From Escherichia coli (lineage in GTDB: Bacteria; Pseudomonadota; Gammaproteobacteria; Enterobacterales; Enterobacteriaceae), in assembly GCF_003334335.1 (NCBI RefSeq), contig NZ_QOWQ01000077.1: 5,196 nucleotides of DNA. One strand, written 5' to 3'. The notes under the pieces were generated by a model, which did no database searches, was not told where the DNA came from, and was given only the letters and a program-made list of their open reading frames with translations. Positions 2,200-5,196 of the stretch are shown piece by piece; position 1 is the first letter of the stretch, and every line of letters starts with the position of its first letter. Both the position numbers and the translations under genes were made by a program.

Positions 2200-2216
2200 T
2201 GTGATCCTTATTGCAA
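2200..2216. promoter_or_regulatory. Possible CRP-binding half-site upstream of the colicin promoter
   Basis: tgtgatccttattgcaa has TGTGA, a 6-nt spacer, then TTGCA (3/5 match to TCACA), centred about 60 nt upstream of the predicted transcription start. Colicin E1 expression is known to be catabolite-sensitive. The match is weak. Confidence 0.25.
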
Positions 2217-2234
2217 AAATGAAAATCCATGCTC

Positions 2235-2263
2235 TTGACATGGACAATGCTGAATAGTAGGTT
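2235..2263 (+). promoter_or_regulatory. Colicin operon promoter
   Basis: Perfect -35 TTGACA at 2235..2240, a 17-bp spacer, and a -10-like TAGGTT at 2258..2263, immediately upstream of the LexA boxes. Confidence 0.55.
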
Positions 2264-2267
2264 TTTG

Positions 2268-2298
2268 CTGTACATAAAACCAGTGGTTATATGTACAG
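2268..2298. promoter_or_regulatory. Tandem overlapping LexA (SOS) boxes
   Basis: CTGTACATAAAACCAG (2268..2283) overlaps a second box read on the bottom strand, CTGTACATATAACCAC (2283..2298). This dual-box arrangement is characteristic of colicin promoters and nearly identical to the recalled colicin E1 operator. Confidence 0.85.
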
Positions 2299-2346
2299 TA
2301 TGTTGTTTTTAATTTATTGTTTTAATTATCAAAGAGGAATTTCTTT

Positions 2347-3819
2347 ATGGATAAAGTCACTGATAATTCTCCAGATGTGGAGAGCACAGAATCTACTGAG
2401 GGGTCATTCCCAACTGTTGGGGTTGATACTGGCGATACGATTACAGCGACGCTTGCAACTGGAACTGAAAATGTTGGTGGAGGCGGTGGAGCATTTGGTG
2501 GGGCCAGTGAAAGTTCTGCTGCGATACATGCAACCGCTAAATGGTCTACCGCGCAGTTGAAAAAACATCAGGCTGAACAGGCTGCCCGTGCTGCTGCGGC
2601 TGAGGCAGCATTGGCAAAAGCGAAATCTCAGCGTGATGCCCTGACTCAACGTCTCAAGGATATTGTTAATGACGCTTTACGTGCTAATGCCGCTCGTAGT
2701 CCATCAGTAACTGACCTTGCTCATGCCAATAATATGGCAATGCAGGCAGAGGCTGAGCGTTTGCGCCTTGCGAAGGCAGAGCAAAAAGCCCGTGAAGAAG
2801 CTGAAGCAGCAGAAAAAGCGCTCCGGGAAGCAGAACGCCAACGTGATGAGATTGCCCGCCAACAGGCTGAAACCGCGCATTTGTTAGCAATGGCGGAGGC
2901 AGCAGAGGCTGAGAAAAATCGACAGGATTCTCTTGATGAAGAGCATCGGGCTGTGGAAGTGGCAGAGAAGAAGCTGGCTGAGGCTAAAGCTGAACTGGCG
3001 AAGGCCGAAAGCGATGTACAGAGTAAGCAAGCGATTGTTTCCAGAGTTGCAGGGGAGCTTGAAAACGCTCAAAAAAGTGTTGATGTGAAGGTTACTGGAT
3101 TTCCTGGATGGCGTGATGTTCAGAAAAAACTGGAGAGACAATTGCAGGATAAGAAGAATGAATATTCGTCAGTGACGAATGCTCTTAATTCTGCGGTTAG
3201 CATTAGAGATGCTAAAAAAACAGATGTTCAGAATGCTGAGATAAAATTAAAAGAAGCTAAGGATGCTCTTGAGAAGAGTCAGGTAAAAGACTCTGTTGAT
3301 ACTATGGTTGGGTTTTATCAATATATAACCGAACAATATGGGGAAAAATATTCCAGAATAGCTCAGGATTTAGCTGAAAAGGCGAAGGGTAGTAAATTTA
3401 GTAGTGTTGATGAAGCTCTTGCTGCATTTGAAAAGTATAAAAATGTACTGGATAAGAAAATCAGTAAGGTTGATCGGGATGCTATTTTTAATGCGTTAGA
3501 GTCTGTTAATTATGATGAGTTATCTAAGAATTTAACGAAGATATCAAAGTCGCTTAAAATCACTAGTCGAGTATCTTTTCTATATGATGTTGGTTCTGAT
3601 TTTAAAAATGCAATAGAAACTGGTAACTGGCGACCTTTGTTTGTCACGCTGGAGAAAAGTGCGGTCGATGTAGGTGTGGCAAAAATTGTGGCATTAATGT
3701 TTAGTTTTATTGTTGGTGTGCCTCTTGGTTTCTGGGGGATTGCAATTGTCACAGGTATTGTTTCTTCTTACATAGGGGATGATGAGTTGAACAAACTTAA
3801 TGAGTTGTTAGGGATTTAA
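2347..3819 (+). CDS. cta: Pore-forming colicin, colicin E1 family (490 aa); best recalled match is colicin 10
   Basis: AGAGGA lies 9 nt upstream of the ATG. Residues ~55-130 ([29 protein letters not shown]...[16 protein letters not shown]...[31 protein letters not shown]) and the C-terminal channel domain (YGEKYS...[28 protein letters not shown]...LKIT..VSF.YDV.SD...TG.W.PLF.TLEK.A.D.GV...VAL.FS...[15 protein letters not shown]....LN..NE.LGI) closely parallel the recalled colicin E1 sequence. The N-terminal ~50 aa and the central region differ. The 490-aa length, the 96-aa immunity protein and the 43-aa lysis protein fit my recollection of colicin 10, but colicin 5 or a close relative cannot be excluded without a search. 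Confidence 0.85.
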
Positions 3820-4106
3820 TTTCTCTTTAGAGTGTAATATATGAAACTTGGCAATCCTACTGGGATTGCCATTAATAAATAAAACAATGCAGATAACTTG
3901 CATAAGTACCAGGGTTCTTTTTTTAACTTTGTATTTTCTTTGATATATCTAGATATGGTTAATTTAGAGTATGGATATAGCAATACATGTATTGATGATA
4001 TAAATATAAATAACAAAGGAGTGTTATCATTGTCGTTAAATATTAAAATAAGAATCCATGGTATAAGTGATTCAGGTAAATTATGTAGGTAGTATTTTAA
4101 ATGCAT
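3816..4106 (-). CDS. cti: Pore-forming colicin immunity protein, E1 type (96 aa, integral membrane)
   Basis: Convergent with the colicin gene; the two stop codons overlap at 3816..3819. The protein is very hydrophobic and AT-rich in codon usage, with about three predicted transmembrane segments. Motifs [15 protein letters not shown] and [14 protein letters not shown] resemble the recalled colicin E1 immunity protein (...CPYSKYAIEHIF..., ...LAIPFGLLGLVY...). Confidence 0.8.
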
Positions 4107-4135
4107 AAGTATTTTTACTTTTGTTGGAAAGAAAT

Positions 4136-4267
4136 ATGAAAATAATAATTTTTCTAATTACAATATTATTCTTGTCAGGATGTCAAGCAAACTATATTCG
4201 TGATGTGCAAGGAGGAACCGTTGCACCATCTTCGTCTTCTGAACTGACGGGGATCGCGGTTCAGTAG
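4136..4267 (+). CDS. ctl: Colicin lysis (release) lipoprotein, 43 aa
   Basis: Not in the supplied ORF track (too short). Hand translation gives [43 protein letters not shown], with GGAAAG 5-10 nt upstream of the ATG. Signal peptide plus LSGC lipobox and a short mature peptide are typical of colicin lysis proteins. It sits downstream of the immunity gene on the colicin strand, as kil does in ColE1. Confidence 0.8.
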
Positions 4268-4275
4268 AAAAGATC

Positions 4276-4302
4276 AAAGGATCTTCTTGAGATCCTTTTT
4301 TT
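4276..4302 (+). terminator. Rho-independent terminator of the colicin-lysis operon
   Basis: Hairpin aaaggatct / agatccttt with a 5-nt loop, followed by a T7 run (4295..4302), immediately after the lysis gene stop. Confidence 0.65.
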
Positions 4303-5091: not shown

Positions 5092-5196
5092 TTATCTCTC
5101 TGTGCTATTTTCTACTTCAAAGCGTGTCTGGATGCTGTTCTGGAGTTCTTCTGCGAGTTCGTGCAGCTTCTCACACATGGTAGCCTGTTCGTCAGC
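5092..5196 (-). CDS. rom: Rom/Rop, 3-prime portion (stop at 5092..5094); continues as feature 1..167 across the circular junction
   Basis: Same reading frame as feature 1..167; reverse-complement translation ends ...QTRFEVENSTER*. Positions 5120..5196 duplicate 1..77. Confidence 0.85.
   Translation of the reverse strand, partial: ADEQATMCEKLHELAEELQNSIQTRFEVENSTER
5120..5196. repeat. Terminal 77-bp exact duplicate of window positions 1..77 (circular-plasmid linearisation overlap, not a biological repeat)
   Basis: aagcgtgtctggatgctgttctggagttcttctgcgagttcgtgcagcttctcacacatggtagcctgttcgtcagc occurs at 1..77 and 5120..5196. Implied unit length is 5,119 bp. Confidence 0.9.

Follow-up and report, generated by a model that had tools for sequence, protein, structure and literature searches.

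The window analysed here, the whole 5,196-nucleotide stretch of Escherichia coli DNA, carries a colicin operon with its upstream control block. Over window positions 2200-4300 the operon region is 99.9% identical to plasmid pEcoUTI1a. The genes and control elements are the following:

2235..2240, plus strand: TTGACA, a hexamer resembling a -35 element, in the colicin promoter, read from the sequence
2268..2298, plus strand: two LexA-box-like sites with a one-base overlap, CTGTACATAAAACCAG (2268-2283) and GTGGTTATATGTACAG (2283-2298), found by pattern search
2332..2337, plus strand: ribosome-binding site AAGAGG, 9 nt 5' of the ATG, read from the sequence
2347..3819, plus strand: colicin 5 structural gene, 490 amino acids plus stop, from the open reading frame list and an exact-sequence look-up
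3816..4106, minus strand: immunity gene of 96 amino acids, its product 100% identical to Cki, the immunity protein of colicin K
4136..4267, plus strand: colicin release (lysis) lipoprotein gene of 43 amino acids, from the open reading frame list and the pEcoUTI1a annotation mapped to the window

The promoter and ribosome-binding site block upstream of the gene is common to colicins K, 10 and E1. The TTGACA hexamer belongs to a block that the plasmids of colicins 10 and K carry in near-identical form and the colicin E1 plasmid in similar form; a consensus promoter scan did not report a full promoter upstream of the colicin gene. The LexA-box-like block, detected with a pattern that allowed 1 and 2 mismatches, is kept in the colicin 10, K and E1 plasmids. 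Paired overlapping LexA boxes are the usual SOS operator arrangement of colicin operons. The AAGAGG ribosome-binding site is kept in all four of the colicin plasmids compared. Two overlapping open reading frames, 2291..2560 (+) and 2404..2649 (-), were considered as genes and set aside for want of any evidence; a frameshifted database fragment, P0006, reads into the first of them.

The encoded protein is colicin 5, not colicin 10. An earlier note on this DNA, made from the sequence alone, had named it colicin 10, but the 490-residue product corresponds exactly to 'colicin 5 [Escherichia coli]' and to UniRef entry CE05_ECOLX. Compared with colicin 10 (Cta), it shows 32 differences, 26 of which fall in residues 391-490 and 6 before residue 391. 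This C-terminal portion of the pore region is 98% identical to colicin K and 74% identical to colicin 10, and the immunity protein, of the colicin 5/colicin K type, is only 67% identical to Cti; the Cta pore domain and its cognate Cti are thus absent from the window. The RefSeq immunity protein WP_011264161.1 is annotated on pEcoUTI1a as well as on pVR50C, a colicin K plasmid. The gene hence combines a colicin K-type C-terminal pore region and a Cki-type immunity protein with a colicin 10-type uptake region. Residues 1-292, including the 100% identical residues 1-195 and within them the first 58, do not differ at all between colicins 5 and 10, so what the earlier note had argued about the N-terminus carries over to colicin 5. 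RefSeq gives the gene a generic label, and many copies from this protein family appear in databases under the name colicin 10.

Within the product, the following segments can be delimited, all on the plus strand:

2347..2388: residues 1-14, an acidic polar N-terminal extension without detectable relatives
2395..2463: residues 17-39, a putative TonB-box cassette of the colicin B/D type, P-T-x-G-x3-G-D-T-[ILM]-x-[VA], from alignments
2434..2448: the proposed TonB box, D30-T31-I32-T33-A34, from alignment, a TonB-box matrix and a fusion model
2464..2505: residues 40-53, a glycine-rich and probably flexible spacer that links the box to the TolC-binding domain, from composition and alignment
2506..3012: residues 54-222, a TolC-binding helical-hairpin domain common to colicin E1 and klebicin C, from PDB matches
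2932..3246: residues 196-300, a colicin K-like region, 76% identical to colicin K
3262..3807: residues 306-487, the pore-forming domain, Pfam PF01024 (E = 7.5e-32)

The pore-forming domain is the only part of colicin 5 that Pfam recognises, and in the PDB it matches the colicin E1 pore domain 2i88 with E = 1.6e-69. An NCBIfam match to a coiled-coil SMC family, far below the cut-off, was discarded as spurious. Residues 54-222 are homologous to structurally defined TolC-binding fragments, those of colicin E1 (6wxh_D, E = 5e-56) and klebicin C (7nna/7ng8, E ~2e-15), and the first five codons of this domain are the only ones that lie within nt 2347-2520. By blastn, DNA homology to the colicin E1 gene cea begins exactly at window nt 2506, that is, at codon 54. 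Between the hairpin and the pore domain, identity to colicin K rises from 18% over residues 54-195 to 76% over residues 196-300. Use of Tsx is common to colicins K, 5 and 10 (PMC9558359), and residues 196-300 are presumably the Tsx-binding domain.

Upstream of the hairpin lies the N-terminal tail. Nucleotides 2347-2520 encode residues 1-58 of the colicin, their translation matching exactly the residues quoted in the earlier note. The composition of this segment is strongly biased, with 19% Gly, 29% Ser plus Thr and 10 Asp/Glu against a single Lys, and the 53 residues of the tail carry a net charge of -8. The glycines are clustered: the densest 18-residue window contains 8 of them, a density matched in 0 of 5000 whole-protein shuffles, and residues 59-200 contain none. 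The 18-residue glycine-rich string quoted in the earlier note corresponds to residues 40-57 (nt 2464-2517), and its likeness to the glycine run of colicin E1 is borne out by an alignment of the spacer to the colicin E1 segment GSGSGGGGGKGGSK at the protein level. At the DNA level, blastn detects no homology between the spacer and colicin E1, nor any before codon 54, and by these comparisons the glycine cluster of residues 40-53 resembles that of colicin E1 in composition only.

The tail has a very narrow distribution. An exhaustive search with residues 1-57 against 1.84 billion representative proteins returned nothing beyond colicins 5 and 10 and copies of them that are truncated or frameshifted, the 'variant' database fragments of the tail being frameshifted or truncated calls. 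Weak tblastn matches (H52-H54, E = 4-10) to unannotated DNA of Proteus and Klebsiella were taken as chance. All 26 of the 26 plasmid copies compared are 98-100% identical and their tails are invariant; since the tail is unchanged in these plasmids and has relatives nowhere else, conservation cannot discriminate between its residues.

It has been reported that colicins 5 and 10 require TonB (PMC11658791, PMC9558359) and that they contain a TonB box (PMC11658791). The earlier note had put forward two candidate boxes, TVGVD and DTITA, without assigning either. Several lines of evidence now favour the second. In the PDB, residues 2-45 match only colicin B (1rh1_A, residues 4-26), with 12 of 23 positions identical, although the PDB-wide E-value is only 0.74. 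In this alignment DTITA falls on colicin B D17-V21 (DTMVV), and it has been demonstrated that residues 17-21 are the colicin B TonB box and that their deletion abolishes translocation (PMC8546555). Pairwise Smith-Waterman comparison with colicin B residues 1-56 yields a score of 67, reached by 0 of 5000 composition-matched shuffles; the scores with an Enterobacter tRNase bacteriocin, the F765 variant and a K. michiganensis TolC-domain bacteriocin are likewise significant, being reached in 0, 1 and 2 of 5000 shuffles, respectively. In the K. michiganensis protein, the sequence GDTLTVT lies 34 residues before a junction motif that is also present in colicin 5. In addition, a profile built without colicin 5 matches its residues 18-52 with the GDT in the same register as in the colicin B alignment (1 of 3000 shuffles reach the score). 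The tail is thus significantly similar, in register, to other TonB-box cassettes. Residues 1-14 fall outside every stretch that aligns to colicin B/D or to the Klebsiella relative.

The pentapeptide itself is also of the expected kind. Documented TonB boxes include DTMVV in pesticin and ETLTV in colicin M, and DTITA, embedded in a tail rich in Gly, Ser, Thr and Asp that is probably disordered, follows the [DE]-T-hydrophobic-x-V pattern up to its fifth and last position, where Ala takes the place of the usual Val. In colicin M the corresponding residue is Val6, and its mutation leads to an inactive toxin. A similar peptide is found in FhuA, whose mature N-terminus contains DTITV at residues 7-11, the TonB box of FhuA. 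Its context, EDTITVTAA, compares with GDTITATLA in colicin 5; the FhuA peptide belongs to the plug domain of a transporter, whereas that of colicin 5 would sit on a free, disordered toxin tail. On a TonB-box matrix, DTITA ranks first within residues 1-70 with 8.2 bits, the next best pentapeptide reaching 2.1. The pentapeptide alone carries little information, as DTMVG at residues 318-322 outscores it on the same matrix, and a text search of the literature for 'DTITA' retrieved only irrelevant papers.

Modelling with AlphaFold2 points in the same direction at low confidence. In a fusion of colicin 5 residues 1-60 to TonB through a linker, the peptide was unstructured and formed no strand (mean pLDDT 52). 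A shorter redesigned construct with a trimmed alignment, Col5(15-45)-linker-TonB(151-239), placed a strand at T31-T35 as the only secondary structure of the peptide, with pLDDT 50-70; the mean pLDDT of this model was 53 and its pTM 0.42, and within colicin 5 pLDDT was at least 50 in residues 24-35 only. Taken together, the alignments, the independent profile and the TonB-fusion model point to D30-A34, so that the box left unassigned in the earlier note can be assigned: DTITA is probably the TonB box of the N-terminal tail.

Three other readings have to be weighed against this assignment. One is that the whole tail descends from the colicin E1 N-terminus (GQVIITLLNG), with a switch from Tol to Ton by point mutation, and not from a separate cassette. 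With both HMMER and MAFFT, the alignment to colicin E1 reaches back as far as residue 29 of colicin 5, opposite G-QVIITLLNG, and the TolA box of colicin E1 lies within its first 40 residues, that is, in the same slot (PMC9020818). However, the similarity between colicin 5 residues 1-41 and colicin E1 residues 1-30 is not significant, its score being reached by 789 of 5000 shuffles, and that between residues 1-53 and 1-45 (190 of 5000) derives mainly from the glycine run. DNA homology to colicin E1 begins only at codon 54, and the tail is far more similar to colicin B/D than to colicin E1. A Tol-dependent N-terminus of the colicin E1 type was not found over the first ~40 residues, in agreement with the earlier view that these differ from colicin E1, and the colicin E1 'QVIITLL' was rejected as a homologue of the box on the basis of the shuffles. 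Descent from colicin E1 is therefore unlikely.

The second is that TVGVD (residues 23-27, nt 2413-2427), or the neighbouring PTVGV, constitutes the TonB box, which we consider very unlikely. PTVGV is the second-best pentapeptide on the matrix with its 2.1 bits, the segment lies inside the cassette common to colicin B/D and the Klebsiella relative, with its P-T-x-G, and the raised pLDDT in the fusion model covers residues 24-35 as a whole. Nevertheless, TVGVD aligns to colicin B T10-D14 (TEGID), outside the colicin B box, the matrix score lies 6 bits below that of DTITA, the predicted strand comprises T31-T35 and not residues 23-27, and TVGVD has a glycine in mid-motif and lacks the [DE]-T-hydrophobic signature. 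TVGVD is thus part of the conserved upstream flank and not the box. The third, that TonB dependence stems from another element such as DTMVG or from a diffuse property of the tail without any discrete box, is highly improbable: DTMVG has the top matrix score of the whole protein (9.95 bits) and the klebicin C box MVSLG, unlike DTITA, shows that functional boxes can be non-canonical, but DTMVG lies inside the folded pore-forming domain and is identical in the Tol-dependent colicin K (PMC9558359), so it cannot determine TonB use, and colicins 5 and K, which differ in their import routes, differ in sequence precisely in residues 1-195.

With DTITA as the preferred box, the tail of colicin 5 can be placed among those of related toxins. 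Colicins B and D have in common with it the cassette EGS-x-PT-x-G-[VI]-D-x-G-D-T-[IM], followed by a Gly/Pro-rich disordered stretch, but at its N-terminus colicin 5 is 13 residues longer, and its box has T-A at the end instead of V-V. Furthermore, colicins B and D enter via FepA, a TonB-dependent transporter itself equipped with a TonB box, so that two steps depend on TonB, while the Tsx and TolC used by colicin 5 both lack such a box. Klebicin C and a K. michiganensis bacteriocin with an S-type pyocin domain (L013) resemble colicin 5 in the architecture of a disordered tail with a TonB box, a glycine-rich spacer, the junction motif and a TolC-binding hairpin. Unlike it, they are toxins of the nuclease or pyocin-S type with no need for a separate receptor, and their tails are longer, with ~70 residues before the junction against 53 in colicin 5; the MVSLG box of klebicin C occupies residues 16-20. 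Colicin E1 shares the TolC-binding domain from colicin 5 residue 54 onwards, has a glycine run before the same junction motif and carries its import epitope in the same N-terminal slot (the TolA box within residues 1-40), but it is Tol-dependent, binds BtuB, and over its first ~30 residues is not significantly similar to colicin 5.

Import of colicins 5 and 10 depends on Tsx, TolC and TonB, and it has been proposed that the klebicin C model probably applies to them (PMC11658791). The earlier note had read the segment as a colicin N-terminal translocation region and had cited this combination of partners for colicin 10. The analysis supports the translocation region of a pore-forming colicin dependent on the three proteins, in agreement with the literature (PMC11658791, PMC9558359). 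In klebicin C, the disordered N-terminus passes the TolC iris and the TonB box is essential (PMC8324772), and in the FhuA-TonB co-crystal the strand of the box pairs in parallel with the TonB beta-sheet (PMC2533080). Applied to colicin 5, nt 2347-2520 would encode a disordered import tail made up of the acidic extension, the cassette with the TonB box and the glycine-rich spacer, joining the hairpin at S54. The colicin K-like central domain would dock on Tsx, and the helical hairpin would go into the TolC channel with the N-terminus leading. The flexible tail of ~53 residues would then come out of the periplasmic end of TolC, where the C-terminal domain of TonB may gain a beta-strand from the DTITA(T) segment, and the toxin would be pulled in by the proton-motive force acting through ExbB-ExbD-TonB. 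The order of these threading and pulling steps is suggested by analogy with klebicin C. As a whole, a three-part tail with a DTITA box and a klebicin C-like import via Tsx, TolC and TonB is probably the best explanation of this segment.

Colicins 5 and 10, their Tsx/TolC/TonB route and a TonB box were reportedly described by Pilsl and Braun in two papers of 1995. The N-terminal import tail is to that extent an ordinary, already described feature, also covered in recent reviews. What is gained here is that the gene is correctly named colicin 5. In addition, the location of the candidate box at nt 2434-2448 and of the junction at codon 54 can help in the design of chimeric bacteriocins directed at TolC, or of TolC efflux blockers.

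A more speculative and rather doubtful idea is that the TonB-recruiting element is longer than a pentapeptide, and that the P-T-x-G-x3-G-D-T-[ILM]-x-[VA] cassette and its glycine-rich spacer form a mobile unit grafted across outer-membrane gateways. If so, these gateways would be unrelated, with FepA admitting colicins B and D and TolC admitting colicins 5 and 10 as well as the Klebsiella toxin, and the upstream flank, TVGVD included, would play a separate part, for example as a second contact with TonB or an aid to threading. In a related vein, the tail is strongly acidic but would need to get past the periplasmic end of TolC, which is acidic too, and this would argue against the electrostatic-steering idea put forward for klebicin C. 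Apart from these speculations, the same extended cassette occurs on both FepA- and TolC-entering toxins, which is consistent with a modular shuffling of import epitopes.

The pore-forming colicin encoded in the window, which the earlier note had named colicin 10, is colicin 5. This is the name returned for its exact sequence (UniRef CE05_ECOLX), and nucleotide comparison of the operon region (2200-4300) gives 99.8-99.9% identity to small E. coli plasmids annotated with a colicin-like pore-forming protein, the colicin K immunity protein cki and a lysis protein, versus only 91.5% to colicin 10 (cta/cti/ctl) plasmids. The immunity gene is of the Cki type, and the C-terminal residues resemble colicin K:

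Identity of colicin 5 and its immunity protein to their colicin 10 and colicin K counterparts
Residues 1-195: colicin 10, 100% identical; colicin K, unrelated (18-34%)
Residues 196-300: colicin K, 76%
Residues 391-490: colicin K, 98%; colicin 10, 74%
Immunity protein: Cki, 100%; Cti, 67%

As colicins 5 and 10 are the same over their first 292 residues, the misnaming is harmless for the N-terminal region. RefSeq labels the colicin only "colicin-like pore-forming protein" and the immunity gene "cki colicin K immunity protein" (2347-4267; plasmid records H1-H11), and the 90% cluster contains sequences of both colicin 5 and colicin 10, its other members being named "colicin-10". Pfam recognises the pore domain only (residues 306-487). 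The same RefSeq immunity protein, WP_011264161.1, is found on the colicin 5 plasmid and on the colicin K plasmid pVR50C, and therefore producers of the two colicins would be expected to be cross-immune.

The window is a complete circular plasmid of 5119 bp with a 77-bp terminal overlap (1-77 = 5120-5196), and it differs from pEcoUTI1a (NZ_CP049851.1) at four positions (2254, 2572, 4756 and 4873). Apart from these genes, the plasmid has a backbone of the ColE1-like kind. Comparison with pEcoUTI1a, the list of open reading frames and a pattern search for LexA-like boxes place the following features:

427-774, 998-1426, 1542-1820 and 1812-2129, a MobA-like gene, an Exc2-family lipoprotein gene and two small hypothetical genes upstream of the colicin promoter
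2268-2283, LexA-like box upstream of the colicin gene
2283-2298, second LexA-like box upstream of the colicin gene
2347-3819, plus strand, colicin 5 open reading frame, 490 aa

On pEcoUTI1a, rop is annotated at a position spanning the start of the window; the 5.1-kb plasmid shows no sign of a relaxase gene.

By alignment, codons 1-53 of the colicin gene are a cassette of their own, because a shared promoter block ends at the ATG and a shared TolC-binding domain begins at codon 54. In the colicin 10 and K plasmids the promoter, the LexA-like boxes and the AAGAGG ribosome-binding site recur almost unchanged, and colicin E1 has similar ones; from the ATG onward the sequences diverge. Similarity to colicin E1 cea starts in blastn exactly at nt 2506, i.e., codon 54, and PDB searches match the colicin E1 TolC-binding fragment (6wxh_D, E = 5e-56) from residue 54 on and the klebicin C TolC-binding structures 7nna and 7ng8 at residues 54-222. 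A search of 1.84 billion representative proteins gave no relative of residues 1-57 beyond colicins 5 and 10, and the 26 plasmid copies are all 98-100% identical. A third member carrying the colicin 5/10 uptake region, with residues 1-300 identical, is encoded on p2_ST865 (NZ_CP077651.1, 448-2207). Over its residues 391-490, identity is 67% with colicin 5 and 72% with colicin 10; for its immunity protein the values are 61% (Cfi/Cki) and 76% (Cti). This member may be an immunity type of the group that has not been described before.

Translation of nt 2347-2520 gives residues 1-58 exactly as quoted in the earlier note. The glycine-rich segment described there is also borne out: it spans residues 40-57, and the 8 Gly of the protein's densest 18-residue window were equalled in 0/5000 shuffles, with zero glycine in residues 59-200. 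Gly makes up 19% of the tail and Ser+Thr 29%, and the tail is strongly acidic (10 Asp/Glu versus 1 Lys); by a simple charge-hydropathy calculation it counts as disordered by a narrow margin (0.461 vs 0.469), weak evidence taken alone. Residues 1-53 (2347-2505), which would have to thread through TolC, carry a net charge of -8.

Two motifs had been proposed as possible TonB boxes, neither assigned: TVGVD (residues 23-27) and DTITA (residues 30-34, nt 2434-2448). The box is now assignable to D30-A34 as a candidate. The single PDB match for residues 2-45 is colicin B (1rh1_A; 12/23 identical, E = 0.74), in which T17-G39 align to N4-G26 (NEGSVPTEGIDYGDTMVVWPSTG) and D30-A34 stand opposite colicin B residues 17-21, the TonB box whose deletion abolishes translocation (PMC8546555). 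TVGVD aligns with colicin B TEGID (residues 10-14), a conserved upstream flank outside the box. Since the database-wide E-value is weak, pairs were tested directly by Smith-Waterman alignment:

Smith-Waterman scores against composition-matched shuffles of the colicin 5 tail (n=5000)
Residues 1-53 with colicin B 1-56: score 67, 0/5000
Residues 1-53 with an Enterobacter colicin D-like tRNase bacteriocin: score 52, 0/5000
Residues 1-53 with the colicin B-like variant of plasmid pF765_2: score 55, 1/5000
Residues 1-53 with colicin K: score 35, 854/5000
Residues 1-53 with colicin E1 1-45: score 41, mostly from the glycine run, 190/5000
Residues 1-41 with colicin E1 1-30: score 22, 789/5000

A profile made from four proteins other than colicin 5 (colicin B, the Enterobacter protein, a Klebsiella protein and the pF765_2 variant) matches residues 18-52 of colicin 5 with the register unchanged, a score attained by 1/3000 shuffles. 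Documented TonB boxes include DTMVV of pesticin and ETLTV of colicin M, and the FhuA mature N-terminus was verified as AVEPKEDTITVTAAPA. On a small TonB-box matrix, DTITA is the top pentapeptide of residues 1-70 (8.2 bits; PTVGV next at 2.1), pentapeptide matches carrying little information content; its fifth position is Ala in place of the usual Val. DTMVG (residues 318-322; 3298-3312), inside the pore-forming domain, outscores it, and is most likely a chance match because the Tol-dependent colicin K has the identical pentapeptide.

Structure prediction lends DTITA weak support. When colicin 5 residues 1-60 were joined in one chain through a Gly-Ser linker to TonB 151-239 (TonB sequence identical to PDB 9ddo_F), the prediction was uninformative and left the peptide without structure (mean pLDDT 52). 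With residues 15-45, a 20-residue linker, TonB 151-239 and the alignment trimmed to the C-terminal domain, the sole structured peptide element is a low-confidence predicted strand at construct residues 17-21, i.e., T31-T35 (mean pLDDT 53, pTM 0.42), and pLDDT reaches at least 50 in colicin 5 residues 24-35 only.

The Klebsiella protein of the profile is an S-type-pyocin-domain bacteriocin of a K. michiganensis plasmid (L013, NZ_CP029143.1, 685-1314) that shares the colicin E1/klebicin C-type TolC-binding junction of colicin 5, at residue 73. In its tail (...PTSGSWNGDTLTVTPSGG...), residues 40-44 are a canonical DTLTV, whereas the box published for klebicin C is MVSLG; against the colicin 5 tail GDT falls in register (score 58, 2/5000 shuffles). 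A comparable match is present in K. oxytoca CP056420.1. The 6.7-kb E. coli plasmid pF765_2 (NZ_AP026084.1) encodes at 151-318 a colicin B/D-like N-terminus that lacks annotation; at the box position it reads HSMVV rather than DTMVV (MSDYEGSGPTEGIDYGHSMVVWPSTG), a naturally occurring change at both of the most conserved positions of the box.

The import tail of colicin 5 is an already known feature. According to reviews, both colicins 5 and 10 carry a TonB box, use Tsx for binding and depend on TolC and TonB (PMC11658791). Tsx and TolC themselves lack a TonB box, and both colicins probably follow the klebicin C model (PMC11658791). In klebicin C the disordered N-terminus goes through the iris of TolC, and the TonB box, M16VSLG20, is indispensable (PMC8324772). 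Colicin 5 has been listed with Cfi, Tsx, TolC and TonB-ExbBD, colicin K with Tsx, OmpF and TolABQR, and colicin E1 with BtuB, TolC and the Tol proteins (PMC9558359). We infer that the colicin K-like domain of colicin 5 would dock on Tsx, that the hairpin from residue 54 on would open into the TolC channel, and that residues 1-53 would then emerge into the periplasm, where DTITA(T) would pair as a strand with TonB and the proton-motive force would power import. The glycine run would serve as a thin flexible connector of ~20 residues joining the box to the first helix. The interpretation of the earlier note was largely right, apart from the gene name and the unassigned box. Colicin E1 has its TolA box in the corresponding part of its N-terminus (residues 1-40; PMC9020818), in keeping with the idea that exchangeable import epitopes occupy this slot.
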